Source of the DNA: Escherichia coli
GTDB taxonomy: Bacteria; Pseudomonadota; Gammaproteobacteria; Enterobacterales; Enterobacteriaceae
Direction: 5' to 3' (one strand)
Assembly (NCBI GenBank): GCA_005400705.1
Contig: GCA_005400705.1_4079.1
Length of the DNA stretch: 64,000 nucleotides
The notes under the pieces are model-generated. The model did no database searches. It was not told where the DNA came from and saw only the letters and a list, made by a program, of their open reading frames with translations. A program made the translations under genes and the position numbers. Of this stretch, positions 308 to 61,750 are shown piece by piece. Positions within the stretch are counted from its first letter, which is position 1; every line of letters begins with the position of its first letter.

Positions 308-308
308 T

Positions 309-41416: not shown

Positions 41417-42054
41417 TTAAACACAAGTAGACAGGGGAAGCTCCTAGTGAACAACCTTTATGTACAGGCGAATTGTTAAAATTCAGCCTGGACAAATGCG
41501 ATCACTAGGATTCTCCCCAGGCTAAACCCCGTAATCATAGGTAGTCATAAGTAATCATATATAAACATTTATATGAGCACCGTAGAATCACAGAATGATT
41601 ATATATGATTCAGTACTGATTAGTATAGACAAGATTGCTCAAGAATGCACGGAAATGTGTGTGAATGATTCAGTACTGATATCCCACTAAGTAGGCAGAG
41701 GAAGTCTGCCGTACTTTTTAGTTTCCAAGCTCCTTTTCCATTTTTCAAATTACATCAAATGTAATCAAAAGTAATCACGCAATGATTAGTACTGAATTAT
41801 TACTTTCACCTTAATTACAATTACCCTTTTACCCTTCGGGGTAAAATTCCATTACCCCTTGAGGCTCCAGCAAAAAGTTGGTTAGTACTCCATCCTAAAT
41901 CTCGATCCTAAAAATTTTGGAGTACCTATGAAATAAAAGTTGGATCTTCGAAAGTTGAAATTTACGTTGGGACGTTTATGATTTGTGGGATATAATGATG
42001 TTTGTAGTCGGGTAGTTCTCAAGAATATCAGTACTGAATGATGAAAGAAAGCTA

Positions 42055-42082
42055 TTGACTTTATGATTCAGTACTGTATAAT
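42055..42082 (+). promoter_or_regulatory. orphan promoter TTGACT-16-TATAAT with no ORF downstream
   Basis: ttgact 42055-42060, tataat 42077-42082, followed by gttttacat as in the PeSL-type promoters. Confidence 0.5.
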
Positions 42083-42088
42083 GTTTTA

Positions 42089-42200
42089 CATAGAGAGATG
42101 AGTTGCCGCAAACAATTCATTCACTCTACTTCCTGTCGTGAGACAGTACAGAAAGATAGTTCCTCCTATGGGTGGTACATCTTTTAGAACCTCTTTTTTC
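42089..42200 (+). ncRNA. candidate small RNA
   Basis: About 110 nt from the orphan promoter to the T-run ctcttttttc at 42191-42200, no ORF. Confidence 0.25.
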
Positions 42201-42410
42201 GTAATATGAACAGTACTGATATTAACAGAATGGTGTCAGTACTGATTTTAATTTAATGCATTATGCCACCAGCACAAGCTGGTGGATTCCCTCTAACAGT
42301 ATTCAGTACTACATGATGGTCTTCATCCTCCTAGGGTAACATAGTGAGGGCTATGATGGCAGTACTGAATACTCCCTTTCAAAAGATAGATCTATGGTAT
42401 AGTACTGACG

Positions 42411-42600
42411 GATTTTGGGCGTAGTTACCCTGGATGGATTTTGGACGTAGATATGTCTAGCCCTCCAGAAGTCTGGAAGTAAAGATGGCTATCCATCTAG
42501 ACGGCTAAACGGCTAGATTTCTGGATGGCTGGATGGCTAGACGTTTGGACGGCTAAACGGCTAGATGGTTACACGTCTGGAAGTATAGACGGCTAAATCA
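42411..42600. repeat. iteron-like direct repeats
   Basis: gacggctaaacggctagat twice (42500-42518, 42548-42566); ggatggct three times; gtctggaagta twice; gattttgg(g/a)cgtag twice. Confidence 0.6.
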
Positions 42601-43337
42601 AAATTTTATTTTGTTTTTTCCAATAGTTCCCCTACCGCGTGGGGATAGTTTCCCCGCAGTATCTGGAGTTAGATTTTTCTGAATCTGGAATCATTATCTT
42701 ATAAACTGGGGGCAATGTCAACCGCCTGGACGGATATTTTTAAAAATTTTTTCAGTACTGAATTTTGGGCGTAACTATGCACCCGGTGGGCTTGAGTCTT
42801 TCTCGACTTGATGGAACTATTATACAGTACTGGAAAAATAAAGCAATACCCTGGAAGCAAAAAAGTTTTAATTAATTTGCTTGCTATCCTGGGCCGGACT
42901 ATGGTACTATATTTCAGTACTGAGAAAGTGCGTTTACCTGCTAGGGTGCGGGAGTGTATCCTTTTTTTATATCTTGAATTTTGGGCGTAATTCCGCACCC
43001 TCTGGGGTTTCCGCTTTCTCGCGTCTATGTAGTAATTATACGCTTTTTCAGGATCAAGTCAATACCTAAAAACAAAATAATTGAAAATAATTTAACGCGT
43101 TTAAACGGCCCGTAAAGCCCTGGAATGATTGGAATGGTGCAAATGTATAGCTTAGGTGTATTAATGCGTTAGAATGCGTCTGAGGCCGTTTTACGGGGTA
43201 TAGGGATGATTTGGTGGATTGATTCAGTACTGAATGATAGTACTACTATATAGAAAGATAGTTCCCCTGAATGGTTGCAGTACTGAATGATAGTTCCCCT
43301 ATATAGAAAGAAAACTATTTTAAAAGTATTTGTAGAA

Positions 43338-43402
43338 AGTACTTGCAAACTAAGTTTAACGGCGTATAATGTTTTACATCGAGAGCGGGAACACTTCCCG
43401 CT
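43338..43402 (+). promoter_or_regulatory. PeSL-like cassette (promoter AGTACTTGCAAAC..TATAAT, stem-loop GCGGGAA-CAC-TTCCCGC)
   Basis: tataat 43365-43370 within gtataatgttttacatc; hairpin 43385-43401. Confidence 0.6.
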
Positions 43403-43425
43403 ACATATTACGAGAGATTAAAACG

Positions 43426-43788
43426 ATGGCGACTCAAATCACTAAAATTATTGCTAACCTGGTTAACTTTCGCGACGAGATGAAAGATCTTCCGGCAGAA
43501 ACGGTAAAAATTCACATTTCAGCTTATCGGGAACTTATTGCAATGTTACCGCTTAAGCGTGAACAATACGCCGCGACCGTGATGCTTGATGCGATGATCC
43601 ATAAGATGATCGCCAGTGATTTAACGATGGTTTATCAGTATATGGGCGAAAATTTCGCGGTGTATAGTAAACCAGTACCAGGAATGGAAAGTACAGAAGT
43701 ATTACACGGTTTAAATTTAAAACAAGATGCATGGGATAATATGCCTCGTTTCCTGGTATGGGCTGACAGTGGCAAGATTTACGAATAA
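43426..43788 (+). CDS. hypothetical protein
   Basis: 120 aa from ATG 43426 downstream of the cassette hairpin; ORF-track start 43369 is the ATG inside tataATGtttt. Confidence 0.55.
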   Translation: MATQITKIIANLVNFRDEMKDLPAETVKIHISAYRELIAMLPLKREQYAATVMLDAMIHKMIASDLTMVYQYMGENFAVYSKPVPGMESTEVLHGLNLKQDAWDNMPRFLVWADSGKIYE

Positions 43789-43797
43789 GTTTTAGAA

Positions 43798-43860
43798 AGT
43801 ACTTGCAAACTAAGTTTAAAAGCGTATAATGTTTTACATCAGGTGGGGAATAGTTCCCCA
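43798..43860 (+). promoter_or_regulatory. PeSL-like cassette
   Basis: agtacttgcaaactaagtttaaaagcgtataat then hairpin tggggaa-tag-ttcccca 43844-43860. Confidence 0.6.
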
Positions 43861-43881
43861 CTATATAAGAGGATTAAAAAA

Positions 43882-44121
43882 ATGGCTAAATCAAAAATGT
43901 TCTTAGGTCACAAAAACAAAACTCATTGGAATGTAAGCCTTTGGATTAATAACGATGAGTCATTGTACCGGTTGGCCCAGGACTTTATTAACGATAGCAC
44001 TAATCGCAATGATGCGGCCCGTCATATGATGTTATTTTTAGAACAGACTGGACAAGATAAAACACCGGACGGATTCAAATATAGCACTACTGCGATCCGT
44101 GCGGCGATGGTTGGAATGTAA
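43882..44121 (+). CDS. hypothetical protein
   Basis: 79 aa from ATG 43882, RBS gagga. Confidence 0.55.
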   Translation: MAKSKMFLGHKNKTHWNVSLWINNDESLYRLAQDFINDSTNRNDAARHMMLFLEQTGQDKTPDGFKYSTTAIRAAMVGM

Positions 44122-44136
44122 TAGAATATATTTAAA

Positions 44137-44170
44137 GTACTATCGCAAAAAATGATAGTACTTTATAATA
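44137..44170 (+). promoter_or_regulatory. promoter with upstream palindrome AGTACTATC...GATAGTACT
   Basis: Palindrome 44137-44163, tataat 44165-44170; same design at 55759-55794. Confidence 0.5.
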
Positions 44171-44206
44171 GTGTTTTATTCATACACAAACGATAAGGGC
44201 AACAGC

Positions 44207-44473
44207 ATGAATATTAAGTATTTTGCGACGCGTGAACAAGCTCGGATCGCCGCACGCCAGGACGGGGCAACGTTTAAAGATATGGGCGTACAATCGGAAC
44301 GTGGTAAACGTTGGGCCATTATAAAGCGTAGTACCGCCAGATCATTACAGTACTGGTTAGCGGCGTTAAAAAGTCCTGATAGTGTATCGCGTCGAGTGGT
44401 AGAAATAAAGCTCGACCGAAAGGGCAACCGCGTGACCGTGTACCGTACTAAAAAGATAGCAGTACTTGAATAA
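44207..44473 (+). CDS. hypothetical protein (paralog of 55839 product)
   Basis: 88 aa; FATREQARIAARQDGATFKDMG ... DRKGNRVTVY shared with the 55839-56234 product. Confidence 0.55.
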   Translation: MNIKYFATREQARIAARQDGATFKDMGVQSERGKRWAIIKRSTARSLQYWLAALKSPDSVSRRVVEIKLDRKGNRVTVYRTKKIAVLE

Positions 44474-44474
44474 A

Positions 44475-44538
44475 AGTACTTGCATACTATGTTTAAAGGC
44501 GTATAATGTTTTACATCGAGAGCGGGAACACTTCCCGC
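44475..44538 (+). promoter_or_regulatory. PeSL-like cassette
   Basis: aaagtacttgcatactatgtttaaaggcgtataat, hairpin gcgggaacacttcccgc 44522-44538. Confidence 0.6.
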
Positions 44539-44559
44539 CTATAACCTGGAGTAATAAAA

Positions 44560-44790
44560 ATGACTAATATGTATATGACTGAAGTTAAAACTGTAAAAGA
44601 TACTACCACGAATAAAACTACTTACTTACAGCGGATCTGTGGTGTCTGGCAACGTATCAGCAAAATAAAGTACTATAAATTGACATCACATGCTAACCGT
44701 TCGGATTCATTCAGTACTGAAATAAAAGGTAATAAAGTACACCAATACGGCACTTATTATTATTATAGCCTGGATGCGATTGCAGTATAA
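44560..44790 (+). CDS. hypothetical protein
   Basis: 76 aa, RBS ggag. Confidence 0.55.
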   Translation: MTNMYMTEVKTVKDTTTNKTTYLQRICGVWQRISKIKYYKLTSHANRSDSFSTEIKGNKVHQYGTYYYYSLDAIAV

Positions 44791-44820
44791 GCAGTTTACA
44801 AATCTTTACAATTGCCGGTA

Positions 44821-44849
44821 TTGACTTATTTTGTCAGTACTGGCATAAT
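44821..44849 (+). promoter_or_regulatory. promoter TTGACT-17-CATAAT (AGTACTGG class)
   Basis: ttgact 44821-44826, agtactggcataat. Confidence 0.45.
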
Positions 44850-45032
44850 GTATTCATTGGCAGATAAGCCGTAGCCCATAGGGTGCGGGAGTGTATCTAT
44901 AGAAAAAGTAGTTTATTACAGTTACAATTGTGCACCCGGTGGGTTAGCTGTTGTCATGGGGTATATTATACCAGTACTGGATAGTGCTGTCAATACCTTT
45001 TTACTATTCAGTACTGAAAACTATTTTTAAAA

Positions 45033-45065
45033 AGTACTTGCAAACTATGTTTAAAGGCGTATAAT
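45033..45065 (+). promoter_or_regulatory. PeSL-type promoter driving the structured element
   Basis: agtacttgcaaactatgtttaaaggcgtataat. Confidence 0.55.
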
Positions 45066-45150
45066 GTTTTACATCAGGACGGGGAACGAAATAAGTAACT
45101 TCCCGTTAAGTAGCCCAGGAGTAAGGCACACGAAAAACTCCCCTGATAAA
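45066..45150 (+). ncRNA. candidate structured small RNA, copy A (identical copy at 54907-54990)
   Basis: No ORF; closing helix atcagg...cctgat and inner hairpin acgggga...ttcccgt; about 100 nt identical in both copies. Confidence 0.35.
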
Positions 45151-45155
45151 ATAGT

Positions 45156-45183
45156 TTGACAAATGTTTTTAAAAGCGTATAAT
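45156..45183 (+). promoter_or_regulatory. sigma70-type promoter TTGACA-16-TATAAT
   Basis: ttgaca 45156-45161, tataat 45178-45183. Confidence 0.55.
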
Positions 45184-45215
45184 ACTTACATCAACTACTG
45201 AATGAGGGTTACAAA

Positions 45216-45827
45216 ATGAAAACTATCACTACTACTACTTTCGTTATGGCTTTTTCTGAATTGAACGCAGAACAACAAACGTCAGCTATCGAACTGGTTC
45301 GGGATCGGGAACGTTCAAGCGGTGATGATTTCTTTTCTGAGTCAGTGATCGAGTACTATAAAGAAACAGTACTACCAGAATATGGAATTGATGACGCTGA
45401 TTTGCAATTCAGTGGTTTTTGGTCGCAGGGTGACGGTGCATCAATCAGTACTGACCACGTTGACGCTGTGAAGTTTTTACGCAAGATTAAAGCATTAACT
45501 AAGTATCGTTCTATCCGTCACCTGCTGAATGAAGATGATTTGGCGATGAGTGTAAAGCGTTCTCACTCCCACTACTCGCATGAAAACACTGTAAGCGGGT
45601 ACATTGAATCGGGGTACACTGATTTAACCGCAAAACAAGAAACGTTAGTTAATGAGCTTGAGGAACTACTCACTGAAACTATTCGTGAATTATCCCGCAA
45701 GTTGTACCGTGATTTAGAGAATGCATATGAGGATCAATTCACTACTGAAAACATTACGGCACTGATTGAGGGTAACGAATATCAATTCAATGTTATTGAT
45801 GGCGTAGTAGAATCTATCGAATATTAA
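45216..45827 (+). CDS. hypothetical acidic protein
   Basis: 203 aa, RBS gagggt. Confidence 0.6.
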   Translation: MKTITTTTFVMAFSELNAEQQTSAIELVRDRERSSGDDFFSESVIEYYKETVLPEYGIDDADLQFSGFWSQGDGASISTDHVDAVKFLRKIKALTKYRSIRHLLNEDDLAMSVKRSHSHYSHENTVSGYIESGYTDLTAKQETLVNELEELLTETIRELSRKLYRDLENAYEDQFTTENITALIEGNEYQFNVIDGVVESIEY

Positions 45828-45883
45828 TTCAGTACTGAATCAATGGCGGGAGTGGTTCCCGCCTATAACCAGGAGTAAGCATC

Positions 45884-46117
45884 ATGATCGAACAAATTCA
45901 AACGACCACAAGCCGGAGCGGAACGAAAGTACATTACATCGCTGATACTGATAAAGGTGTACCCTATTGTGCTGTACACGTAAATACTGACGGTGACTAT
46001 TGGTTAACTGTATACGGGCGTTACTCGTTTGCTTTTAGTGCACATTGTAAGATCCTGGAAGTAGTGAAGCCTACCGGTAAGAATATCACGCCGGGAAAAT
46101 GTTTTACTAAGCACTAA
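45884..46117 (+). CDS. hypothetical protein (paralog of 47039 product)
   Basis: 77 aa; GVPYCAVHVNT.G.YW.TVYG.YSF ... PTGKNIT shared with 47039. Confidence 0.6.
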   Translation: MIEQIQTTTSRSGTKVHYIADTDKGVPYCAVHVNTDGDYWLTVYGRYSFAFSAHCKILEVVKPTGKNITPGKCFTKH

Positions 46118-46118
46118 A

Positions 46119-46185
46119 AAGTACTTGCATACTAAGTTTAAAAGCGTATAATACTTTATATCGAGGCGGGGGAATGGTTCCCGCC
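46119..46185 (+). promoter_or_regulatory. PeSL-like cassette
   Basis: aaagtacttgcatactaagtttaaaagcgtataat, hairpin ggcggggg-aatgg-ttcccgcc. Confidence 0.6.
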
Positions 46186-46203
46186 TTTACTGAGGATTAT
46201 CTA

Positions 46204-46491
46204 ATGAGCAAAGTAATTAACTATACAGTACTAAGCAAGTCATTATCTATTAGCCAGTGCACCGATGGTTTTTGGCTGTACGATGAAACGCGTGGCATGA
46301 ATTTAGCTATGCGGGAGAAAACTGCTGAGGCGGCGTATTTACAAGCCCTGGAATACTACCAGGAACGTTTAAAGGAAGTAGAAAACAATTATCAAAATTT
46401 AAAAGAGAAAGTAGATAATTTCGTTTGTCAATTCGTTGACGATGACGAGGAAGACGGGCACTACTGCAACCGTTGCGGATCTTACAATTAA
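46204..46491 (+). CDS. hypothetical protein
   Basis: 95 aa from ATG 46204; C-terminal CNRCGSYN. Confidence 0.5.
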   Translation: MSKVINYTVLSKSLSISQCTDGFWLYDETRGMNLAMREKTAEAAYLQALEYYQERLKEVENNYQNLKEKVDNFVCQFVDDDEEDGHYCNRCGSYN

Positions 46492-46554
46492 GTACTTGCA
46501 ATTAGTTTTCAGTACTGTATAATGGTTTACATCAAAGGGAGAAATGGTTCTCCC
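46491..46554 (+). promoter_or_regulatory. PeSL-like cassette
   Basis: agtacttgcaattagttttcagtactgtataat, hairpin gggaga-aatggt-tctccc. Confidence 0.6.
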
Positions 46555-46573
46555 TGGTAATGAGGAAAATAAA

Positions 46574-46795
46574 ATGGCTAATATCACTACTCTTTCCCAA
46601 CTGGAAGCACTGGTTAAATCTATGCGGGAACATGCCGACAAAATCGGCGTACAAGATCCAGCCGTTTGCTTCTGCGACGAATTGAATGATGATACCCTGG
46701 TAATAGCAGAAGTCCAGGACGTTTCTAACTATTCCTCGCGTTACACTGGCGGCGTAGCAAATAAAGGTGACTTCTGTTTATACCTTACAAAATAA
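46574..46795 (+). CDS. hypothetical protein
   Basis: 73 aa from ATG 46574, RBS gagga. Confidence 0.55.
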   Translation: MANITTLSQLEALVKSMREHADKIGVQDPAVCFCDELNDDTLVIAEVQDVSNYSSRYTGGVANKGDFCLYLTK

Positions 46796-46798
46796 CAA

Positions 46799-46836
46799 CG
46801 CGGGGAGATAATAACTCCCCGTTACTTTTTCAGTAC
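46799..46836 (+). terminator. intrinsic terminator
   Basis: cgcggggag-ataataa-ctccccg then ttacttttt. Confidence 0.6.
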
Positions 46837-46958
46837 TGAATCATTTAATAGACGGATCTCGGCACCCGGTGGGTTAGTGACTGTTTCGTCTTGATGTAGT
46901 AATTATGCCAGTACTGGATGCACTTGTCAACAATTATTTTTCAAATACTTTTTATTAA

Positions 46959-47017
46959 AATACTTGCAATTAGTTTTTAAACGCGTATAATGTTTTGCAT
47001 AGGGGGAGCGGTTCCCC
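46959..47017 (+). promoter_or_regulatory. PeSL-like cassette
   Basis: tacttgcaattagtttttaaacgcgtataat, hairpin gggga-gcggt-tcccc. Confidence 0.55.
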
Positions 47018-47038
47018 TGGTAACTAAGGAATAATAAA

Positions 47039-47275
47039 ATGCTTGAACAAATCAAATCAACGTCTTCGAATGTAACGGGAACGGTAGCACACTTTACTAG
47101 TGATGAATCGCGGGGCGTTCCCTATTGTGCTGTACATGTAAACACTGAGGGTAACTACTGGTTTACGGTTTACGGTTCATATTCATTTGGACGGCCAGGG
47201 CATCAAAAAATTCTGGATAAAGTACAGCCAACGGGTAAAAATATCACTGCTGAAATGTTTTATAAAAAATCATAA
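47039..47275 (+). CDS. hypothetical protein (paralog of 45884 product)
   Basis: 78 aa, RBS aagga. Confidence 0.6.
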   Translation: MLEQIKSTSSNVTGTVAHFTSDESRGVPYCAVHVNTEGNYWFTVYGSYSFGRPGHQKILDKVQPTGKNITAEMFYKKS

Positions 47276-47276
47276 A

Positions 47277-47339
47277 GTACTTGCAATTAGTTTTTAGTAC
47301 TGTATAATATTTTACATCGCAAGGGGGAGCGGTTCCCCC
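47277..47339 (+). promoter_or_regulatory. PeSL-like cassette
   Basis: aagtacttgcaattagtttttagtactgtataat, hairpin ggggga-gcggt-tccccc. Confidence 0.6.
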
Positions 47340-47359
47340 TGGTAACTAAGGATAATCAA

Positions 47360-47659
47360 ATGAAAATTGCAATCATCGCCCTGGCTTTATCTGTTTCCTC
47401 TTTCGCTGTTAATGCGTCATTAGATGTAAGTAGTGAAAAATTCATTCAGTGCACTGTTGCAATGACCGATGAAAGTACTGGCGAGATTGTTTTAAAGGAT
47501 TTAGAGATCCAGCCCGAAGCATTTAAAAACGGGCCGTTCCATGAAGAAGACGAAAAAGGTAGCACGACAATTTATTACGATGCAAGTACTAAACGCGGTT
47601 CGGTCACTGTTATGGATACTGAGAAAGTAACTCATACTGGCGTTATTAATTGCCGTTGA
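47360..47659 (+). CDS. secreted protein (signal peptide)
   Basis: 99 aa, signal peptide MKIAIIALALSVSSFAVNA. Confidence 0.55.
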   Translation: MKIAIIALALSVSSFAVNASLDVSSEKFIQCTVAMTDESTGEIVLKDLEIQPEAFKNGPFHEEDEKGSTTIYYDASTKRGSVTVMDTEKVTHTGVINCR

Positions 47660-47680
47660 TAGATACTACGGGGTAACATC

Positions 47681-55419: not shown

Positions 55420-55743
55420 ATGGCTATGATCCTTACCCAGAAAGTAGAACTGAAAATTGTAACCTCCTTTGACATTAAAGTTAATCGCTGGACTGATCGG
55501 AACGGCAATACTTACCACTCTTGCTACGTGTCTGCATTGATTGGTGATCGTTGGGAAGACCTGGGACACGAAACTTTTACATACGGTTACGGTACGCAAG
55601 GCGAATACACGGGCTTGGAGATCATTAAAGAAACCGTTATAGGTTTCAACCCGAAAGAAAAAGTTATTCACCGCATCGAAAAAGAGATTAACAAAGAAAT
55701 AACAGTTCGCTACTACGATGTAAAACGTAAGAAAGACATGTAA
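55420..55743 (+). CDS. hypothetical protein (paralog of 49451 product)
   Basis: 107 aa, RBS agagag. Confidence 0.55.
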   Translation: MAMILTQKVELKIVTSFDIKVNRWTDRNGNTYHSCYVSALIGDRWEDLGHETFTYGYGTQGEYTGLEIIKETVIGFNPKEKVIHRIEKEINKEITVRYYDVKRKKDM

Positions 55744-55758
55744 TAGAATCCATTTAAA

Positions 55759-55794
55759 GTACTATTTGACATTACACAGATAGTACTTTATAAT
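55759..55794 (+). promoter_or_regulatory. promoter with palindrome AGTACTAT...ATAGTACT
   Basis: ttgaca 55766-55771 inside the palindrome, tataat 55789-55794. Confidence 0.5.
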
Positions 55795-55838
55795 AGACTC
55801 TAGCTTGTAGTACTAACTTAACTAATAGGATGTATACC

Positions 55839-56234
55839 ATGATTACTAAATTCTACGCTACCCGTGAAGCTGCCCGTATTGTTGCACGCGAGGAAGGAGC
55901 AGCATTTAAAGACATGGGCAAAGATGCACCGAAAGGCCAACGCTGGGCCGTACAGTTCAAAGAGATCTCTGATATTGTGAATTCACCGGAGCCAGTACTG
56001 ACAGCAGCAGAACAGAAGAAAGCTGATGAACTGTCAGCAGTTCTTAACGCTCAAGATGACTTTATCGCGGGTTCTGATATTAAAGTTTCCGTAAATTCGA
56101 ATGCATGGACTCACGCGGATCATCTGGCTAACTTGAAGCGTCCAAGTGTACTGATTCGCAACCAACGAGAGATCCGCCACGACCGCAAGGGAAACAGTGT
56201 TACTGTATTCAGTAAACGCCGCCAGGTTATCTAA
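55839..56234 (+). CDS. hypothetical protein (paralog of 44207 product)
   Basis: 131 aa from ATG 55839, RBS agga. Confidence 0.55.
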   Translation: MITKFYATREAARIVAREEGAAFKDMGKDAPKGQRWAVQFKEISDIVNSPEPVLTAAEQKKADELSAVLNAQDDFIAGSDIKVSVNSNAWTHADHLANLKRPSVLIRNQREIRHDRKGNSVTVFSKRRQVI

Positions 56235-56255
56235 TAACTTGCAGTACTAACAACA

Positions 56256-56290
56256 CGGCGGGTTCAGTTCCCGCCTTTTTTTTATAGGAT
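56256..56290 (+). terminator. intrinsic terminator
   Basis: ggcggg-ttcagtt-cccgcc then T9. Confidence 0.7.
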
Positions 56291-56298
56291 AAACTAAA

Positions 56299-56553
56299 AT
56301 GATGAAGGTACAACTATCTAAAGATAATATCTTGCGGGTACACTATAAAGCACCACAGAGAATCATCACAAAGGCCGTACAGCTTGCTAATGAGTTTATT
56401 AATGGTAGTCTATTACCCAGGAAGTTAAGCAACGGGAAACTACGTGTTATCGATGTAGACACTAACAATAGAATAGTAATTGAGAGTACTGGAAAAATTA
56501 ATCTATATGAACACCAACAATACAATAAAAAAATAAAACTAATATCACGTTGA
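56299..56553 (+). CDS. hypothetical protein
   Basis: 84 aa. Confidence 0.5.
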   Translation: MMKVQLSKDNILRVHYKAPQRIITKAVQLANEFINGSLLPRKLSNGKLRVIDVDTNNRIVIESTGKINLYEHQQYNKKIKLISR

Positions 56554-56578
56554 CAGTACTCAATTGTTTTAGTATTAT
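56550..56578 (+). promoter_or_regulatory. promoter TTGACA-17-TATTAT
   Basis: Near-identical to the 56826 promoter and leader. Confidence 0.5.
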
Positions 56579-56606
56579 GTACACATACCAACACGGGAGA
56601 AACAAA

Positions 56607-56825
56607 ATGAAATTATCTAAAATCGAAAAGAAAACTATTGATGAAGCAGTTAAGCACGGTTATACCTTTCGTAATGATTCACATTTTACCAATTTTCAAC
56701 AAGGGTATCGTACTATTAAAAAACTAATTGACAAAGGTTTATTAGTTGAAGTCAATAACGGCAATGGCATTGAGTATCAACCAACACAGGACGCATTTTA
56801 TTTTAAGAAATATAATATTATCTAA
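56607..56825 (+). CDS. hypothetical protein
   Basis: 72 aa from ATG 56607, RBS gggaga. Confidence 0.5.
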   Translation: MKLSKIEKKTIDEAVKHGYTFRNDSHFTNFQQGYRTIKKLIDKGLLVEVNNGNGIEYQPTQDAFYFKKYNII

Positions 56826-56854
56826 TTGACAGTACTCAAATGTTTTAGTACTAT
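56826..56854 (+). promoter_or_regulatory. promoter TTGACA-17-TACTAT
   Basis: Duplicate of the 56550 cassette. Confidence 0.5.
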
Positions 56855-56883
56855 ATGTACATACCAACACGGGGAAAAACAAA

Positions 56884-57126
56884 ATGATTACTTTAGAAAA
56901 ACGTATCAAAGAAACTACATCGCTGGTGGAACTGTTAACAGTACTGAAATGTAAAACAACACCATTCAGCACGCCGGACTTTATTAATATGGTTGATGTT
57001 AATGGTCGCTATCGCATCACGGTCGAACAAGGAGCGGCGAAAGTATTCAGTACTAAAAACACCAAGGAAGTGATCCACGCCGTTAATGTTAAAAAAGTAG
57101 TTGCCATTGATAGTAAAGTACTGTAA
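56884..57126 (+). CDS. hypothetical protein
   Basis: 80 aa. Confidence 0.5.
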   Translation: MITLEKRIKETTSLVELLTVLKCKTTPFSTPDFINMVDVNGRYRITVEQGAAKVFSTKNTKEVIHAVNVKKVVAIDSKVL

Positions 57127-57157
57127 TATAGTTTCATTAACTCAAGGAGAACATGCA

Positions 57158-57742
57158 ATGCGTAATTATACTAAATTCATCCGTACACTGTCAGAAATGG
57201 AAACCAACAAAGAGATCCTTTCAGCTTGTCGGTTAGCTGGCCTGGAGATCATCGGTGCTGGTTCTTCCCGTATAGTATTCGCTTTAAATGATCGGTTAGT
57301 GATTAAGGTCGCGAATTGTGATGCGGGTGTAGAACAAAATGAAACTGAATGTAAGGTATGGAATTTTTTAGACTATGACCGCCCTCAGTTGAAACAGTAC
57401 TTTGCAAAGGTGCATATGCATTTATGCGATCCTGATAATATGTTTATCGTTATGGATCGGTTGAGTACTGCAAGCAAAGGCAGTGTGAAGCACGTTAACG
57501 CGTGCAATGAATTAAAGTACAATATTAAACGTAATGCCATTGAACGCCAGCACCGCTTTGCTGATGCACTACAACACGTTGATGATACCTTATCAACACT
57601 AACTATAAGAGATATCAGAAAACAGAATATCGGCCAGGATCGCAACGGCTTGATTAAAGTACTTGATTACGGTTTAACCCGCAATATCTGGAATCAGTAC
57701 TATAAAAAGCGTGATGTAAAAGCCGTAACTATAACACGATAA
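57158..57742 (+). CDS. protein kinase-like protein
   Basis: 194 aa from ATG 57158 (RBS aaggaga); Gly-rich IGAGSSRIVF, Lys in VIKVA, RDIRKQNIG (HRD-like), VLDYGL (DFG-like). Confidence 0.5.
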   Translation: MRNYTKFIRTLSEMETNKEILSACRLAGLEIIGAGSSRIVFALNDRLVIKVANCDAGVEQNETECKVWNFLDYDRPQLKQYFAKVHMHLCDPDNMFIVMDRLSTASKGSVKHVNACNELKYNIKRNAIERQHRFADALQHVDDTLSTLTIRDIRKQNIGQDRNGLIKVLDYGLTRNIWNQYYKKRDVKAVTITR

Positions 57743-57756
57743 AAAAGATTAAAAAA

Positions 57757-57790
57757 GGGATTGACTCCGGTCAGTCCCTTTGCTATTATA
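57757..57790 (+). terminator. fused terminator-promoter (GGGATTGAC-TCCG-GTCAGTCCC)
   Basis: Hairpin 57757-57778, TTT, tattat 57785-57790. Confidence 0.6.
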
Positions 57791-57871
57791 TATGCATGAA
57801 AACAATCTAACCCACCGGGTGCATAAATGTATCTATTATATAAGTATTCAGTACTGAAAACTATTTTTAAA

Positions 57872-57937
57872 AAGTACTTGCATACTATCTCAATTCGCGT
57901 ATAATGTTTTATATCGAGAGGGGGAAATGGTTCTCCC
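57872..57937 (+). promoter_or_regulatory. PeSL-like cassette
   Basis: aaagtacttgcatactatctcaattcgcgtataat, hairpin ggggaa-atgg-ttctcc. Confidence 0.6.
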
Positions 57938-57959
57938 TGGTACATTAAGGAATAAAATC

Positions 57960-58367
57960 ATGACTACTACCAATCAAGCTCGGAACATCACCAACGATAA
58001 AAATCATGCTGCAATGGTCGCTGGATACATTGAAGCTATGCAATTCAGTACTGTATACAATGAGAACGGCGATTACCTGGAAGATTATGAATTATCAGAG
58101 CAAGCCCATCAAGCGGCAGTGATTGCATGTTCACGTTTCCTTGCTGTACATGGTGAAGATATGGAAACAGTACAAAAACACCATAATCCTGATTATACTT
58201 ATAATCATGCAGGTCATGATCTCTTTCTTACTCGCGAAGGTCACGGCACTGGCTTTTGGGATCGTGATATCGGTCACTATGACGATGTATTCACTAAGTA
58301 CTGCGAAGAAATCAACGTTTGCGATCCCTATGTAGGCGATGATAATCTAATCTATATGGGCGAATAA
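57960..58367 (+). CDS. hypothetical His-rich protein
   Basis: 135 aa from ATG 57960, RBS aaggaa. Confidence 0.55.
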   Translation: MTTTNQARNITNDKNHAAMVAGYIEAMQFSTVYNENGDYLEDYELSEQAHQAAVIACSRFLAVHGEDMETVQKHHNPDYTYNHAGHDLFLTREGHGTGFWDRDIGHYDDVFTKYCEEINVCDPYVGDDNLIYMGE

Positions 58368-58373
58368 AAGTAT

Positions 58374-58432
58374 TTGACAAAGTATATCAGTACTGTATAA
58401 TAGTTTACATCAAGGGGAGAATAGTTCTCCCC
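58374..58432 (+). promoter_or_regulatory. PeSL-like cassette
   Basis: ttgaca-16-tataat (58396-58401), hairpin ggggagaa-tag-ttctcccc. Confidence 0.6.
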
Positions 58433-58456
58433 ACACCAATAAAAGGAAACAAAATT

Positions 58457-58729
58457 ATGTCCAGCTACTCCGCTACTATGATCATTAAAGATATGAACGG
58501 TAATCCTACTTCTGCTGGTGGATCATTTGGAAATATTAACTTAGATGGGCGGTTATCCATGCAATCAGCCATTGATGCAGCGAAAGAAGTTTTTAAGAAT
58601 GAATGTACTGTAAGTAAGCTGGATTATATGGGATTCGCTATCGAGAAAACTAATCGTTTTGTGAACTACAAAAATCCACTGATGATCGATACTAACCTGA
58701 AAGCAAACGAAGTGGAATACTTATTATGA
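58457..58729 (+). CDS. hypothetical protein
   Basis: 90 aa, RBS aaaggaaa. Confidence 0.55.
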   Translation: MSSYSATMIIKDMNGNPTSAGGSFGNINLDGRLSMQSAIDAAKEVFKNECTVSKLDYMGFAIEKTNRFVNYKNPLMIDTNLKANEVEYLL

Positions 58730-58917
58730 CAGTTGAAGAAGTTAAAAAAGTACTGGCAGTACTACGCTATCATAATCATTGTAAGGTGAAGAATGATCCT
58801 GATTATGTTGATTCATCCCTGGAGGAAGACACCTTAAACGCGATAAGCCATATGCAAACATTAGCAAAGCGTATGACCGAAAAGAATAGGCCGGACTATA
58901 TCGGAAATAAAATTTAA
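58726..58917 (+). CDS. hypothetical protein
   Basis: 63 aa, ATGA overlap. Confidence 0.45.
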   Translation: MTVEEVKKVLAVLRYHNHCKVKNDPDYVDSSLEEDTLNAISHMQTLAKRMTEKNRPDYIGNKI

Positions 58918-58986
58918 AAAGTACTTGCATTGTAGTTAGATTAACGTATAATGTTTTATATCGAGAGGGGGAAATGGTTTCCCCTC
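58918..58986 (+). promoter_or_regulatory. PeSL-like cassette
   Basis: aaagtacttgcattgtagttagattaacgtataat, hairpin gagggggaaa-tgg-tttcccctc. Confidence 0.6.
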
Positions 58987-59004
58987 AAGTCCAGGAGATA
59001 CACC

Positions 59005-59268
59005 ATGAACGCTATTGAAATCACTATCAATGCACACGTATACGACAACGTAGTACTGCAAACTACTATGACCGCTAACGATACCAGTACTTTGCGGAAT
59101 ACTGTTATTAGTGCTGTATGTGCCGCTATCGGTGATGTCGCCCTGGAAAATGCAAAACACGTAAACGATGGTTTCACTATGTGCAAACGTGATAACGCAA
59201 AACATATCATCGTAGAAGGTTACGGCGGTGTAGAATATAATGTTTATATGAAAAAAGTACTTGCATAG
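59005..59268 (+). CDS. hypothetical protein
   Basis: 87 aa from ATG 59005, RBS aggaga. Confidence 0.55.
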   Translation: MNAIEITINAHVYDNVVLQTTMTANDTSTLRNTVISAVCAAIGDVALENAKHVNDGFTMCKRDNAKHIIVEGYGGVEYNVYMKKVLA

Positions 59269-59318
59269 TACTGAATAAAGCGTATAATGTTTTGCATAGG
59301 GGGAGATATCCTCCCCCA
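59265..59318 (+). promoter_or_regulatory. PeSL-like cassette
   Basis: aaagtacttgcatagtactgaataaagcgtataat, hairpin gggggag-atatc-ctccccc. Confidence 0.6.
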
Positions 59319-59335
59319 CTAAAAGGAGTATTAAA

Positions 59336-59560
59336 ATGGCTAACTTTGATGAACTGATGCGGGAAGTAGCTAACCTGGCAGAAGAGAAGAAATCATTCGA
59401 TTCTATCTATAACACCGCTCACCGTGATTCAGTACTGGCATGTAACCAGGATCAAAAAGATGAACTAATCGCCACATATCATGAAGCATGGAAGTACTAC
59501 CGACAATGGGAGAAAGAAGAAAGCGAGTCTACCATCGAAGGTATCAATAATCTAATCTAA
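59336..59560 (+). CDS. hypothetical protein
   Basis: 74 aa, RBS aaggag. Confidence 0.55.
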   Translation: MANFDELMREVANLAEEKKSFDSIYNTAHRDSVLACNQDQKDELIATYHEAWKYYRQWEKEESESTIEGINNLI

Positions 59561-59579
59561 AAGTTTTATTTCAGTACTA

Positions 59580-59608
59580 TTGACATAGCTTGATAGTACT
59601 GATATGAT
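59580..59608 (+). promoter_or_regulatory. promoter TTGACA-17-TATGAT (AGTACTG class)
   Basis: ttgaca 59580-59585. Confidence 0.45.
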
Positions 59609-59635
59609 AACTTTACTAACTAAAGGGGAAACATA

Positions 59636-59893
59636 ATGGAACAGTTCACACAATATCGGGTAAATCCAATTGCTACAGCCTACGTAGAAGACCATAAAAC
59701 GTTACCAGTACTGCAACCAGTTAAAGGCCGTATCTATCGTGGCCTTGCCTGGGATACGGCCCAGGATGGATATAAAACCGTCGCCGTGGGGATGTATTGC
59801 GGGAATGGTGAATGGTTTGATCCTAACAATCCGATTGCACTTGACAGTACTGAAAAAATGAAATGGTCCGACTACATCGAAGATATTTCATAA
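59636..59893 (+). CDS. hypothetical protein
   Basis: 85 aa, RBS aagggga. Confidence 0.55.
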   Translation: MEQFTQYRVNPIATAYVEDHKTLPVLQPVKGRIYRGLAWDTAQDGYKTVAVGMYCGNGEWFDPNNPIALDSTEKMKWSDYIEDIS

Positions 59894-59900
59894 AAACTAT

Positions 59901-59961
59901 TTGACAGTACTAACCAGTAATGTATAATGTTTTACATAGAGCGGGGGAATAGTTCTCCCGC
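59901..59961 (+). promoter_or_regulatory. PeSL-like cassette
   Basis: ttgaca-16-tataat (59923-59928), hairpin gcgggggaa-tag-ttctcccgc. Confidence 0.6.
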
Positions 59962-59983
59962 CAATAGTTTGGAGTAAAACATT

Positions 59984-60184
59984 ATGTCTATCGCTATCGC
60001 CCTGGTTGAAGTACTGAAAGAAGCTAAAGCCAACCTTATCGATGTACAGATTAAGGAATTGCAAAACGGCTTAATCGGCTGTACTTGTACCGCTGGTGGA
60101 GCGGCAGACTATCGAGAACACGAATCACTCGAATCACTGGTTCGGTATCTTACCATGATCGTTGATGATTGGAGAATCATCTAA
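59984..60184 (+). CDS. hypothetical protein
   Basis: 66 aa, RBS ggag. Confidence 0.5.
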   Translation: MSIAIALVEVLKEAKANLIDVQIKELQNGLIGCTCTAGGAADYREHESLESLVRYLTMIVDDWRII

Positions 60185-60201
60185 CAAAAAAGAATAAAAA
60201 A

Positions 60202-60234
60202 GGGATTGACTCAGGTCAGTCCCTTTGCTATTAT
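60202..60234 (+). terminator. fused terminator-promoter (GGGATTGAC-TCAG-GTCAGTCCC)
   Basis: Hairpin 60202-60223, TTT, tattat 60229-60234. Confidence 0.6.
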
Positions 60235-60347
60235 ATACGCATAGACAAAAACTAGCCCACAGGGTGCATAAGTGTATCCAAAATATATAGTTAATAACGG
60301 TGAGTAACTATCTGCTGGTGGAGTGAAAACTATTAATAAAAAAAGTA

Positions 60348-60376
60348 TTGACAAAGTATATCAGTACTGCGATAAT
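60348..60376 (+). promoter_or_regulatory. promoter TTGACA-17-GATAAT
   Basis: ttgaca 60348-60353, AGTACTG in spacer. Confidence 0.5.
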
Positions 60377-60429
60377 GTATCTCGTAGGGCGGCAATGGTG
60401 CGACGGCCCACAAAGTTAGGAGATTCAAA

Positions 60430-60762
60430 ATGACTACTTCAATCGCTATCGTTAAAGCTTTCATCCGTACTAATGTTTCCTCTGTATTCATCGACGGCCT
60501 CGACCGTAACGTAGAATACTCAATCATTATCGCACAAACGGCAAACGGTTCTCGGTACATCCTGAATGATAGTGAAGCAAATCACTACTACTTCACTAAA
60601 GCCACTGGCTTTAAACGCATCGATGCTGATGTAGTATACGCTAAGATGAATAAGCTGGTAGACAAGATTAACGCGAAAGGTACTATCGATTTACAGTACT
60701 GGACCGAAACCGATCCAGAATATGGATCACACCGCTACCTGAATCCAGGTATCAAAATGTAA
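60430..60762 (+). CDS. hypothetical protein
   Basis: 110 aa, RBS aggaga. Confidence 0.55.
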   Translation: MTTSIAIVKAFIRTNVSSVFIDGLDRNVEYSIIIAQTANGSRYILNDSEANHYYFTKATGFKRIDADVVYAKMNKLVDKINAKGTIDLQYWTETDPEYGSHRYLNPGIKM

Positions 60763-60763
60763 A

Positions 60764-60830
60764 AAGTACTTGCATAGTACTTAGATTCATGTATAATGTT
60801 TTACATAGAGAGGGGGAAATGGTTCTCCCT
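60764..60830 (+). promoter_or_regulatory. PeSL-like cassette
   Basis: aaagtacttgcatagtacttagattcatgtataat, hairpin gagaggggg-aaatgg-ttctccctc. Confidence 0.6.
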
Positions 60831-60851
60831 CCTAAATTAAGGAGTTTTATC

Positions 60852-61253
60852 ATGACCTTCTCAATCACTTCCTTCGCTGACGTTTTAGTACTGGCTCGGA
60901 CTTTTGGTAAAGATGCACTGGAGTACGCTGTAAGTAATGGCACTATCCAACCGGAACAGTGCCGCATCATTGGAAACTGCAAACGTTGGGCGGTATCCAA
61001 TACTATTGCACTGGAAAACTTCAACGATGGCAACAATGAATATTCTGTTGATGCAGTATTCGAAGCCGTAGACCTGGGCGGTATCTATAACACTAACCTG
61101 AATGATGTGCGTATCGTTCGCACTGGCTTCGGTGCTTATGATGTATCTATCCGTGAAGCTATGGACAAGGGATACATTAGCAAGGACCAGTTAGCTTACA
61201 TCATGCAGCAAACTAAGGAGCGTAACGAAGCCCGTACTATCTTAGGGTTGTAA
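60852..61253 (+). CDS. hypothetical protein
   Basis: 133 aa from ATG 60852, RBS aaggag. Confidence 0.55.
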   Translation: MTFSITSFADVLVLARTFGKDALEYAVSNGTIQPEQCRIIGNCKRWAVSNTIALENFNDGNNEYSVDAVFEAVDLGGIYNTNLNDVRIVRTGFGAYDVSIREAMDKGYISKDQLAYIMQQTKERNEARTILGL

Positions 61254-61321
61254 GCGTTACACATCACCAAACATCATAGGCCGCCTTGTAGCGGCCTTAA
61301 CTATATCAGGAGTACATACAC

Positions 61322-61531
61322 ATGATCTATACAGTATATAGCGTTCTAGGTACTATTGCAGGCGTACACGATAACGTCGATAGTGCTATGCGTACAGTAC
61401 TGCAACAGGTTCCACTAAAGCCTAAGACCATTAAGCAGATGACAGCACGACTAACCAGGGCGACGGCTGGCGTGGAAGTATGGCAGGACTATGGGGATAC
61501 ACAGATAATCGTAAGCGTAACGAAGGATTAA
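61322..61531 (+). CDS. hypothetical protein
   Basis: 69 aa, RBS aggag. Confidence 0.5.
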   Translation: MIYTVYSVLGTIAGVHDNVDSAMRTVLQQVPLKPKTIKQMTARLTRATAGVEVWQDYGDTQIIVSVTKD

Positions 61532-61564
61532 TGCGTAAAAGGATTTAGTACTGATTCAGAAAAA

Positions 61565-61640
61565 AGTCAAGGCGTTTTTAAAATTATGCGTTAAAAAAAT
61601 GCATAGGTAATCCCTTGACTTTTTTGAAATAAAAGGGATT
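61565..61640. promoter_or_regulatory. long inverted repeat at block boundary
   Basis: aaaaaagtcaagg ... ccttgactttttt flanking an internal palindrome atgcgttaaaaaaatgcat. Confidence 0.4.
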
Positions 61641-61750
61641 GGACTATGGCAAAATGCGTAGGGGGGCTAAAGTGCGGGTAACTTAGCGACTTCGATAAAA
61701 GGGTATTACGAATAAAATGTTATTGACTTTTTATATAAATCGTATAAAAT

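Follow-up and report, generated by a model that had tools for sequence, protein, structure and literature searches.

A GC-rich block in an Escherichia coli assembly corresponds to the direct terminal repeat of an Asteriusvirus jumbo phage and probably holds early genes tuned to the host

Background

A stretch of 64,000 nucleotides from contig GCA_005400705.1_4079.1 (GenBank assembly GCA_005400705.1, catalogued as Escherichia coli) contains a block of about 20 kb that is richer in G+C than the DNA on either side of it. This stretch is called the window below, and positions are coordinates of the window unless another genome is named. Alignment to related genomes identified the block, 41,690-61,684 on the plus strand (19,995 bp), as a single, collapsed copy of the direct terminal repeat (DTR, ~20 kb) of a jumbo phage of the Asteriusvirus group. 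It is probably also the immediate-early region of this phage, with a composition that would reflect selection for expression by the unmodified host machinery. The block is most likely a standing selective compartment of the phage genome, and neither a recent foreign insert nor the product of a regional mutation bias. The initial annotation of this DNA, which was made from the letters of the sequence, described the compositional step and missed what the block is, a direct terminal repeat.

Results and Discussion

The compositional step

Sliding-window analysis showed a plateau of ~0.38-0.41 GC over ~42-61.7 kb and values of 0.30-0.37 outside it. The GC content of 41,690-61,684 was 0.3874, compared with 0.3429 in the remaining window. 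In a likelihood scan the single change point fell at 42,090 (likelihood-ratio statistic 106), and the optimal two-boundary block was 42,261-61,690 (twice the log-likelihood ratio 122.5; GC 0.389 inside and 0.343 outside), with support intervals of 41,411-42,411 for the left boundary and 61,460-61,880 for the right. None of 20,000 permutations of 500-bp blocks yielded a 20-kb run with equal contrast. The step that the initial annotation had placed at ~41-43 kb and ~61.5 kb is genuine; it is modest (~4.5 GC points) and sharp, most clearly at its right end, where the statistical boundary was 6 bp from the physical end of the DTR. The first 400-570 bp of the DTR showed no GC enrichment.

The boundaries had also been said to coincide with a hub free of open reading frames (ORFs) and with a long inverted repeat. 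The left boundary does lie within the ORF-free stretch, but the inverted repeat on the right is short, a perfect 13-bp pair at 61,560-61,572 and 61,613-61,625, and the right boundary is ~60 bp beyond it.

Identity of the block

Megablast comparison placed the window in the Asteriusvirus group, the ~350-kb jumbo coliphages that include PBECO4, 121Q, G17, phAPEC6, fEgEco12 and others. Window positions 1-25 kb matched 31 records at 96-97% identity across 96-100% of their length. Over 41.4-61.7 kb, coverage was at most 50% in any one place, so that the block is hypervariable within an otherwise conserved genome.

The fEgEco12 paper gives its DTR as 20,993 bp, with termini located by PhageTerm and confirmed by restriction digests (PMC13070987), and the Sharanji paper gives a DTR length of 20,668 bp (PMC11895373). 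Comparison of both ends of the fEgEco12 record showed that its two DTR copies are identical. The first base of this repeat (AGTAGGCAGAGGAAGTCTGCC) maps to window position 41,690 and the last (..GGGCGGGTAACCT/TAGCGACTTCG, the slash marking the end of the repeat) to ~61,684, and the repeat aligns to 41,690-61,684 in 9-10 collinear pieces of 92-98% identity. The G17 record, which comes from another laboratory and is in reverse orientation, contains a 20,668-bp repeat (1-20,668 = 350,150-370,817) with the same end sequences, which map to window positions 41,690 and 61,683. The ends themselves are well conserved: AGTAGGCAGAGGAAGTCTGCC at 41,690 has one mismatch in 40 positions to G17, and ..GGGCTAAAGTGCGGGTAACT/TAGCGACTTCG at 61,684 differs by one indel and a few mismatches.

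The flanks are arranged as a collapsed repeat would have them. On the left, the window up to 41,690 is collinear with the fEgEco12 DNA that leads into its right-hand DTR copy, and the alignment to the right end of that genome runs unbroken from 41,228 through the DTR start. On the right, the window beyond 61,684 is collinear with the fEgEco12 DNA located after the left-hand copy. A single copy is therefore found between right-end and left-end unique DNA, which points to the collapse of two copies in the assembly.

The lengths of such repeats in Asteriusvirus and related ~350-kb jumbo phages are 20,993 bp in fEgEco12, 20,668 bp in G17 and Sharanji, 21,525 bp in vB_Ec-M-J, 19,736 bp in Klebsiella phage fENko-Kae01 (Kae01) and 20,030 bp in Klebsiella phage Muenster. 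The block is homologous to and collinear with these published DTRs, and it shares with them the end sequences, the length class and the type of small genes that it carries. It differs from the DTR of any one published relative in gene content, of which only ~25-50% is shared at high identity. The right junction is alike in two genera, reading ..GGTAACCT/TAGCGACTT in Asteriusvirus and ..TTAGGCT/TAGCACTTT at 20,030/20,031 in Muenster, and this may represent a conserved cutting context for the terminase.

A complete, unannotated relative, EC22.5-2 (351,992 bp, GC 0.341), was assembled for genome-wide comparison. The equivalent of the DTR in this genome, 29,754-51,028, was the GC-richest 20-kb window of the 352 kb, at 0.388 compared with a mean of 0.341 and a standard deviation of 0.0145. 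The runner-up 20-kb window reached ~0.367, at 170-190 kb. This second, weaker rise of EC22.5-2 (0.366-0.368 at ~170,000-190,000) is a separate feature of the genome, as is a group of genes at 227,000-229,000 with codon adaptation equal to that of the repeat, which are possibly highly expressed late genes.

Location of the additional G+C and codon usage

Genes were predicted with a simple ORF caller, and the weights for the codon adaptation index (CAI) were taken from 25 E. coli K-12 ribosomal-protein and rpoA genes. GC at the first, second and third codon positions (GC1, GC2 and GC3) was 0.487, 0.343 and 0.380 in genes of the repeat and 0.445, 0.332 and 0.241 in the rest of the genome (GC3, p = 9e-16). 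The corresponding values in the window were 0.488, 0.341 and 0.376 for the block and 0.442, 0.310 and 0.271 for 1-27.6 kb, as expected from the remark in the initial annotation that codons of the block are GC-richer. Third positions accounted for more than half of the coding GC difference in the window. The codons named there as frequent did rise in relative synonymous codon usage (RSCU) in the repeat of EC22.5-2 compared with its remaining genes: CGG to 0.97 from 0.03, GCG to 0.85 from 0.25, CCG to 1.13 from 0.26 and GGC to 1.00 from 0.28.

Intergenic DNA had been described as GC-richer as well. A slight excess was found (0.353 compared with 0.338, 0.274 and 0.328), but the surplus was restricted to segments that form hairpins. 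In the repeat, intergenic DNA as a whole had a GC content of 0.355, segments with strong hairpins 0.446 and the remainder 0.307, which is not above the intergenic value of 0.312 found elsewhere across EC22.5-2. The CpG odds ratio behaved similarly. It was 1.10 in the repeat and 0.71 outside it in EC22.5-2, and 1.11 and 0.73 in the window; it was elevated at all three codon-position pairs and barely so in intergenic DNA (0.78 vs 0.70). In other words, the GC excess belongs to coding sequence and RNA hairpins, which argues against a regional bias of mutation or conversion.

The shift in coding sequence was directed toward the host. The change in RSCU between repeat and non-repeat genes tracked codon usage in E. 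coli ribosomal-protein genes (r = 0.73), and did so among G/C-ending codons alone (r = 0.72). CTG, CGC, CCG, ATC, GGC, TGC and AGC rose strongly in DTR genes, while CTC, GTC, GGG and TCG were flat. Mean CAI was 0.46 in the DTR and 0.375 in the rest (p = 4e-10). CAI and GC3 were uncorrelated in the rest of the genome (r = -0.10), and after regression on GC3 the DTR genes retained a CAI residual of +0.099 (p = 1e-9).

Seven tRNAs were found in EC22.5-2 (Gly-UCC, Ser-UGA, Arg-UCU, Ser-ACU, Met/Ile-CAU, Asn-GUU and Thr-UGU), corresponding to the codons AGA, ACA, GGA, AGT, TCA, AAY and AUG/AUA. The cognate codons AGA, ACA, GGA, AGT and TCA were scarcer in DTR genes, with Asn (AAY) as the exception. 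ATA was also depleted, and it is a cognate codon only if the tRNA with the CAT anticodon is of the Ile2 type.

Promoter and hairpin modules

The DTR was also enriched in matches to the host promoter consensus. A regex scan for near-consensus sigma-70 promoters found 29 on the plus strand and 2 on the minus strand of the DTR, and 11 in the other 44 kb of the window. In EC22.5-2, 33 of 83 matches were within the repeat, which makes up 6% of the genome, and matches were ~10-fold denser in the DTR than in the remaining genome, a figure that refers to consensus matches only. A more generic scan of the DTR gave 93 promoter-like sites, compared with 65.7 +/- 8.8 in shuffled sequences, and 28 terminator-like sites, compared with 13.5 +/- 3.4; in window positions 1-20 kb there was no excess of either kind over shuffles.

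The promoter matches on the plus strand are part of a repeated module, called class A here, in which an AT-rich stretch is followed by AAAGTACTTGCA (-35), a spacer of 16-17 nt, TATAAT, GTTTTACAT, a GC-rich hairpin of 8-9 bp, a Shine-Dalgarno sequence and ATG. One -35 element is located in the leader of the repeat, at 42,055. The array proper extends over 43,343-60,839 on the plus strand (repeat families D1-D4 and regex scan), with -35 elements that start at 43,343, 43,803, 44,480, 45,038, 45,156, 46,125, 46,496, 46,964, 47,281, 47,993, 48,829, 49,148, 50,675, 50,904, 51,496, 51,931, 53,356, 54,343, 54,879, 54,997, 55,337, 55,766, 57,878, 58,374, 58,925, 59,261, 59,901 and 60,770.

When the first 42 nt of each presumed transcript were folded, 24 of the 29 promoters were found to be followed by a hairpin with a free energy of -8 kcal/mol or lower (median -12.4 kcal/mol). 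The hairpin starts 6-8 nt from the presumed 5' end of the transcript, downstream of the -10 element. Folding of the individual sequences, combined with a table of pair types anchored on the loop, showed that the 24 hairpins comprise 19 distinct stems, in which swaps of GC for AU and of GC for CG preserve pairing. RNAalifold returned no consensus structure for a MAFFT alignment of 26 modules, which was out of register across the variable stems. Hairpins of this type at the 5' terminus are known from the ompA literature to stabilise E. coli mRNAs, and the class A hairpins may have the same role.

A second module, class B, consists of a terminator-like hairpin that carries the -35 element (TTGACT) in its 5' arm, followed by TATTAT and then by the motif CCCACmGGGTGCATAArTGTATC. 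The four copies are at 51,367-51,464 (plus strand; repeat families D10, D12 and D17, terminator scan and alignment), 54,753-54,836, 57,754-57,846 and 60,199-60,291. The ~25-nt motif itself occurs in ~9 copies in both orientations, four of them directly after the promoter-bearing terminator hairpin and the others at 42,776-42,803, 42,935-42,973, 44,872-44,945, 46,843-46,877 and 52,820-52,858. The motif had no match in Rfam.

The hexamer AGTACT was extremely abundant throughout the window. There were 299 copies in the window and 919 in the 352 kb of EC22.5-2 (2.6 per kb overall and 6.6 per kb in the repeat), where ~120 are expected from base composition alone. Copies are placed just 5' of the -35 element (AAAGTACTTGCA) and the -10 element (CAGTACTGTATAAT) and are densest in the promoter modules and at 41,417-43,340, the hub, which contains 12 CAGTACTG palindromes, 10 of them within the DTR. 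The motif is also present in the repeats of Kae01 and Muenster, and it could be a protein-binding site.

Genes and ends of the repeat

All of the ~47 small ORFs of the DTR (42-203 aa, 43,426-61,531) are on the plus strand. Searches against PHROGs and Pfam identified a DksA/TraR zinc finger protein (53,091-53,348, plus strand) and a GNAT acetyltransferase (53,413-53,769, plus strand), and a kinase-like protein (57,158-57,742, plus strand) scored below the Pfam threshold. The ORF at 47,360-47,659 (plus strand) aligns with the position of a fEgEco12 gene annotated as 'protein spackle'. The remaining ORFs belonged to phage families without an assigned function in PHROGs and Pfam.

At its left end the DTR begins with an ORF-poor leader of 1.65 kb (41,690-43,340) that is 94-95% identical to fEgEco12. 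A hairpin and T-run are located at its first bases (41,691-41,710), and iteron-like repeats with an 8-bp period, built of the units GGATGGCT, AGACGGCT and AAACGGCT, fill 42,435-42,594; these may serve as an origin, in packaging or in protein binding. At 42,055-42,130 a promoter and hairpin module (TTGACT, 16 nt, TATAAT and a hairpin of -12 kcal/mol) is not followed by an ORF and possibly specifies a small non-coding transcript. The repeat of the related Pseudomonas jumbo phage PA5oct carries non-coding RNAs (PMC7318152). The left part of the hub, 41,417-41,689, is non-coding unique DNA without ORFs that precedes the right-hand DTR copy. The right end of the DTR (61,560-61,684) consists of the inverted repeat and then ..GGGCTAAAGTGCGGGTAACT, and unique DNA (TAGCGACTTCG) starts at 61,685.

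Conservation across genera

Two Klebsiella phages showed the same arrangement. The annotated repeat of Kae01 (1-19,736) had a GC content of 0.373, compared with 0.340 in the next 30 kb, with a step at the boundary; CAI was 0.447 inside and 0.363 outside, and 19 of 22 promoter matches were within the repeat. The repeat of Muenster, an Alcyoneusvirus (1-20,030), had a GC content of 0.358 compared with 0.273, GC3 of 0.333 compared with 0.220 and CAI of 0.433 compared with 0.338, and 19 promoter matches were inside it and one beyond. All ~350-kb jumbo phages of this clade that the collection contains carried the module, in 5-28 places per record in most, and the hosts of these phages are Escherichia, Salmonella, Klebsiella, Erwinia, Serratia and Yersinia. 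In records with annotated terminal repeats, the module matches are inside the repeats.

A comparison of tetranucleotide signatures, a kind of check proposed together with the initial annotation, separated the DTR from the remainder of its own genome. The three DTRs correlated with each other at 0.76-0.86, and each correlated with its own genome at only 0.37-0.64; the non-repeat parts of the three genomes correlated at 0.60-0.80.

Gene content was also partly retained over this distance. Homologs of 21 of the 47 ORFs, 31-70% identical, were found inside the DTRs of Kae01 or Muenster, some of them at matching positions: the kinase-like gene is ~15-17 kb into the repeat, and the gene at 60,852-61,253 is ~19 kb into it in all three. 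These 21 old residents had a mean GC3 of 0.377 and CAI of 0.467, compared with 0.362 and 0.447 for the other ORFs. A long stay in an AT-rich genome has thus not eroded the signal, which argues for continuing selection.

The substitution spectrum was estimated by a parsimony count over three genomes, the window, EC22.5-2 and CRJP21; a fourth, TH47, was set aside for its poor non-repeat coverage. Equilibrium GC (GC*) was 0.365 [0.335-0.397] in the DTR and 0.310 [0.280-0.342] in window positions 1-27.5 kb, with a probability of 0.007 that the difference is zero or less. Both values are ~0.025-0.03 below the current GC content, so the DTR is not decaying faster than the rest. Together with the host-directed change in coding sequence, the presence of the pattern in other genera and the equal composition of old resident genes, the spectrum supports the suggestion in the initial annotation of a different selective regime.

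A model for the composition of the repeat

These observations would be explained if, during the first minutes of infection, transcription and translation of the DTR genes had to rely on the host machinery in its unmodified state, when neither phage tRNAs nor changes directed by the phage are yet available. The ~47 small genes would be read inward from the left end in ~30 short transcription units. Each unit would have a sigma-70 promoter close to the host consensus and a strong ribosome-binding site, and in most units the mRNA would begin with a stable hairpin. An early need for the host machinery would mean that host-like codon usage is held by selection, which would keep the codons of the DTR nearer to those of the host and oppose the AT-biased mutation pressure of the remaining genome. 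The additional G+C comes from host-preferred codons that mostly end in G or C (CTG, CGC, CCG, ATC, GGC and AGC), from a somewhat greater share of amino acids with GC-rich codons, and from the hairpins. DTR genes avoid the A-ending codons that dominate elsewhere, several of which (among AGA, ACA, GGA, AGT and TCA) are read by phage tRNAs. The repeated modules would act as recombination points for the swapping of cassettes, mostly with related phages and now and then with coliphages of unrelated groups.

More tentatively, the DTR may form, throughout the RaK2/121Q clade, a stable second compartment of the genome, with a codon dialect, a dinucleotide signature and a regulatory grammar of its own, kept distinct from the AT-rich DNA outside by selection for expression in a naive host cell. 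It may at the same time be a platform for integrase-free cassette exchange, with the modules as joints by which small early genes pass among jumbo phages whose hosts belong to different genera and into unrelated Vequintavirinae. The repeat might also enter the cell before the remaining chromosome, as in T5. This broader proposal is possible, and we hold it with distinctly less confidence than the expression-based account.

Exchange with other phages

The block matched 201 phage records, compared with 37 for the flanks, all of the latter from the same genus. About 150 of the records matched by the block were Vequintavirinae and related coliphages, with 80-87% nucleotide identity over single genes. 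Fourteen of the 47 ORFs had homologs in one 19-kb early region of Escherichia phage A73, a member of the Vequintavirinae and an otherwise unrelated coliphage of 142 kb, which also carries a few copies of the promoter and hairpin module (6,098-6,500 and 10,160-10,260). This region of A73 had a GC3 of 0.398 and a CAI of 0.431, and the rest of A73 had a GC3 of 0.362 and a CAI of 0.42-0.46, so that no compartment is apparent there. In alignments to four relatives, 20 of 38 homology breakpoints were in module windows, which make up 18% of the DTR (p = 1.5e-6), although alignments tend to run on into any shared repeat. Judged from these homologies, exchange between jumbo phages and Vequintavirinae at the level of cassettes is real.

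Alternative explanations

Such exchange raises the question of whether the composition of the block was imported. The DTR could be a landing zone for genes of coliphages of higher GC content (the Vequintavirinae, at ~40-43%) or of bacteria, and its composition that of the donors. The many Vequintavirinae records matched by the block and not by its flanks, the A73 region with its DTR-like GC3 and CAI that are ordinary within A73, the hypervariability of the block and the clustering of breakpoints at modules would all be expected from import. The genes themselves speak otherwise. GC3 was 0.376 in ORFs with an A73 homolog and 0.366 in those without, so that genes shared with the Vequintavirinae are not the GC-rich ones; the exchange is real but is not the cause of the GC excess. 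The 21 old-resident ORFs were equally GC-rich and host-adapted, the substitution spectrum gave no sign of faster decay to the GC content of the genome, and the GC content of the DTR varies by genus (0.358, 0.373 and 0.387) with no one value of a common pool. The module was present in ~6 Vequintavirinae records, though many more have single genes in common with the block, and in every jumbo phage of the clade, which suggests that modules have flowed mostly out of the jumbo phages. Import as the source of the composition is therefore considered unlikely. A bias of mutation or repair confined to the region is less probable again. The DTR copies recombine in each cycle, through circularisation and concatemers, and GC-biased conversion or replication and repair specific to the ends could enrich them. 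The right boundary does match the repeat within a few bases, GC* is higher in the DTR, where substitution rates are ~1.5-1.9 times higher, and the pattern is common to three genera. A bias of this kind should, in addition, have raised the GC content of the unstructured intergenic DNA of the DTR, where both GC and CpG ratios were like those of the rest of the genome, although this comparison depends on a few kb of constrained regulatory DNA. It should not have singled out the host-preferred codons among those ending in G or C, nor passed over the initial 400-570 bp of the repeat. The suggestion that a different mutational regime shaped the block was thus not upheld.

The initial annotation had also proposed that the block was acquired from a different background. 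A lone recent foreign island, or an assembly chimera between AT-rich arrays, would account for the compositional step, the distinct tetranucleotide signature, and the flanking repeats and ORF-free stretch. Every relative examined, and two other genera, have the block at the same position with the same ends. These ends are the termini of the genome itself, as determined experimentally in relatives, and neither an integrase, a transposase nor a tRNA was found at its borders by the tRNA scan or in PHROGs and Pfam. This explanation is scarcely tenable. More specific candidates were rejected as well. A genomic island does not fit a block that is not absent from close relatives, has no mobility genes and is not decaying in composition to the GC content of the resident genome. 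An integron-like cassette array does not fit repeats that are sigma-70 promoters, 5' hairpins and ribosome-binding sites and not attC-type elements, with no integrase present. No tRNAs were found in the window, which argues against a tRNA-flanked island.

Several observations weigh against selection for early host expression as a full account of the block. CGG rose from an RSCU of 0.03 outside to 0.97 in the DTR, yet it is rare in the host reference genes (0.04); since CGG is not host-preferred, translation selection alone does not predict its rise. GC1 and GC2 were also higher in DTR genes, which is a matter of protein composition and not of codon choice, and in Kae01 the excess was mostly at these positions, with GC3 rising merely from 0.288 to 0.318. 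Some sigma-70 matches outside the DTR adjoin genes with ordinary, low GC3, so that not every gene putatively transcribed by the host has shifted. The gene pool is partly shared with Vequintavirinae of ~40-43% GC, whose early region has similar GC3 and CAI, and donor composition could contribute for this reason. The early timing is suggested by matches to a promoter consensus and by PA5oct, a distant relative, and the duplication of the DTR at both ends of the DNA of this phage is likewise deduced from its relatives. The genes are short and were called by simple means, and the CAI weights come from 25 genes only. As a separate observation, the near-ban on CGG outside the repeat of EC22.5-2 (29,754-51,028) is unexplained by host preference. 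With these points taken into account, early expression by the unmodified host is still regarded as the probable basis of the composition.

Comparison with known phage systems

In phage T5 the first genes to be transcribed by the host form the pre-early, or first-step-transfer, region, which is part of a long terminal repeat and has a non-coding stretch rich in repeats close to the end. The block resembles it in having genes predicted to be transcribed by the host in a long terminal repeat and a repeat-rich non-coding leader, a likeness of architecture. Codon usage in T4 reportedly differs by temporal class of gene, relative to host and phage tRNAs, as Cowe and Sharp are said to have described in 1991. 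Unlike the T4 classes, the shift in the present phages is confined to one sharply bounded DTR compartment, which makes it visible as a GC step.

In PA5oct, the genes of a 39-kb DTR are highly transcribed early in infection, and the phage depends on the host RNA polymerase (PMC7318152). Bacillus phage SPO1 has a host-takeover module of 24 genes in a terminal redundancy of 13.2 kb (PMC10531801). As in these two phages, many small, mostly uncharacterised genes fill the terminal redundancy, here with ~47 ORFs over 43.4-61.5 kb, and the 29 near-consensus plus-strand matches fit the many strong host-sigma promoters expected of a module of the SPO1, T5 and PA5oct type. The resemblance to a host-takeover module may extend, at the level of predicted domains, to the DksA/TraR-type, GNAT and kinase-like proteins, and the timing would follow by analogy to PA5oct.

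The modules may be compared with promoter-early stem-loops (PeSLs) of T4-like phages, in which a stem-loop just 5' of the promoter acts as a terminator (Comeau et al. 2014, PMC4122927; Arbiol et al. 2010, PMC2839356). Both combine a near-consensus sigma-70 promoter, a stem-loop and a Shine-Dalgarno sequence in a repeated unit that separates small variable ORFs of a hyperplastic region, and in both the breakpoints of indels and replacements between relatives fall at the modules. They differ in that the 24 class A hairpins are 3' of the -10 element, and the PeSL arrangement, with the hairpin at or 5' of the -35 element, is restricted to the four class B modules. In addition, the phages considered here are not strictly T4-like, and the module is common to several genera and a few Vequintavirinae.

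The DTR of these phages has already been published. A term search of the fEgEco12, Sharanji and Kae01 papers retrieved no passage in which GC content, promoters or codon usage are connected with the repeat, and on this basis the compositional and codon compartment appears to be undescribed. As far as was found, it appears undescribed for SPO1 and PA5oct as well.

Other features of the window

The unique DNA on both sides of the DTR is AT-richer. On the right, 61,685-64,000 (plus strand, GC 0.349), which follows the left-hand DTR copy, is collinear with fEgEco12 from g057 onward and contains a packed array of ~70-aa ORFs (61,751-63,928, plus strand). On the left, the DNA before the right-hand copy (27,679-41,416) contains eight tandem RCC1-like paralogs of ~380 aa (369-418 aa) on the minus strand at 27,679-37,332 and an array of ~60-80-aa ORFs on the plus strand at 37,430-41,416. 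The RCC1-like paralogs are labelled 'regulator of chromosome condensation' in relatives; their alignment is patchy, and the array appears to vary between relatives. The arrays on the two sides of the DTR (37,430-41,416 and 61,751-63,928) consist of tightly packed, paralogous ORFs of 60-90 aa on the plus strand. The left array is odd for plus-strand genes, with a GC skew of ~-0.2 and GC1, GC2 and GC3 of 0.355, 0.269 and 0.361, so that GC3 is not below GC1 (family D20).

In relatives, the stretch that aligns to window positions 1-27 kb is annotated with endonuclease V, HNH endonucleases and a protein kinase, and an RpoD-like phage sigma factor is annotated just 5' of the window start. A sigma factor of this type fits a transcription programme that depends on the host polymerase and switches sigma factors. 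Rfam families were not found at threshold anywhere in the window, including the hub and the modules.

Conclusions

The GC-rich block is a well-explained feature and not a new kind of element. For annotation, it means that the step in GC content and codon usage in 350-kb phages marks the physical ends of the genome. About half of the published records have no stated termini, and the step, combined with the conserved end sequences (AGTAGGCAGAGG.. and ..GGTAACCT/TAGCGAC) would orient them and restore their repeats. For method, a compositional 'island' in a viral genome can be a resident gene class under a different selection, and the two can be separated by sequence alone, by comparing coding with non-coding DNA, preferred with non-preferred G/C-ending codons and old with new residents, and by the substitution spectrum. 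For the biology of these phages, the block delimits ~50 candidate host-takeover genes per phage that are short, individually promoted and tuned to the host, and these candidates are an obvious set in which to search for anti-defence factors and for new inhibitors of bacterial processes.

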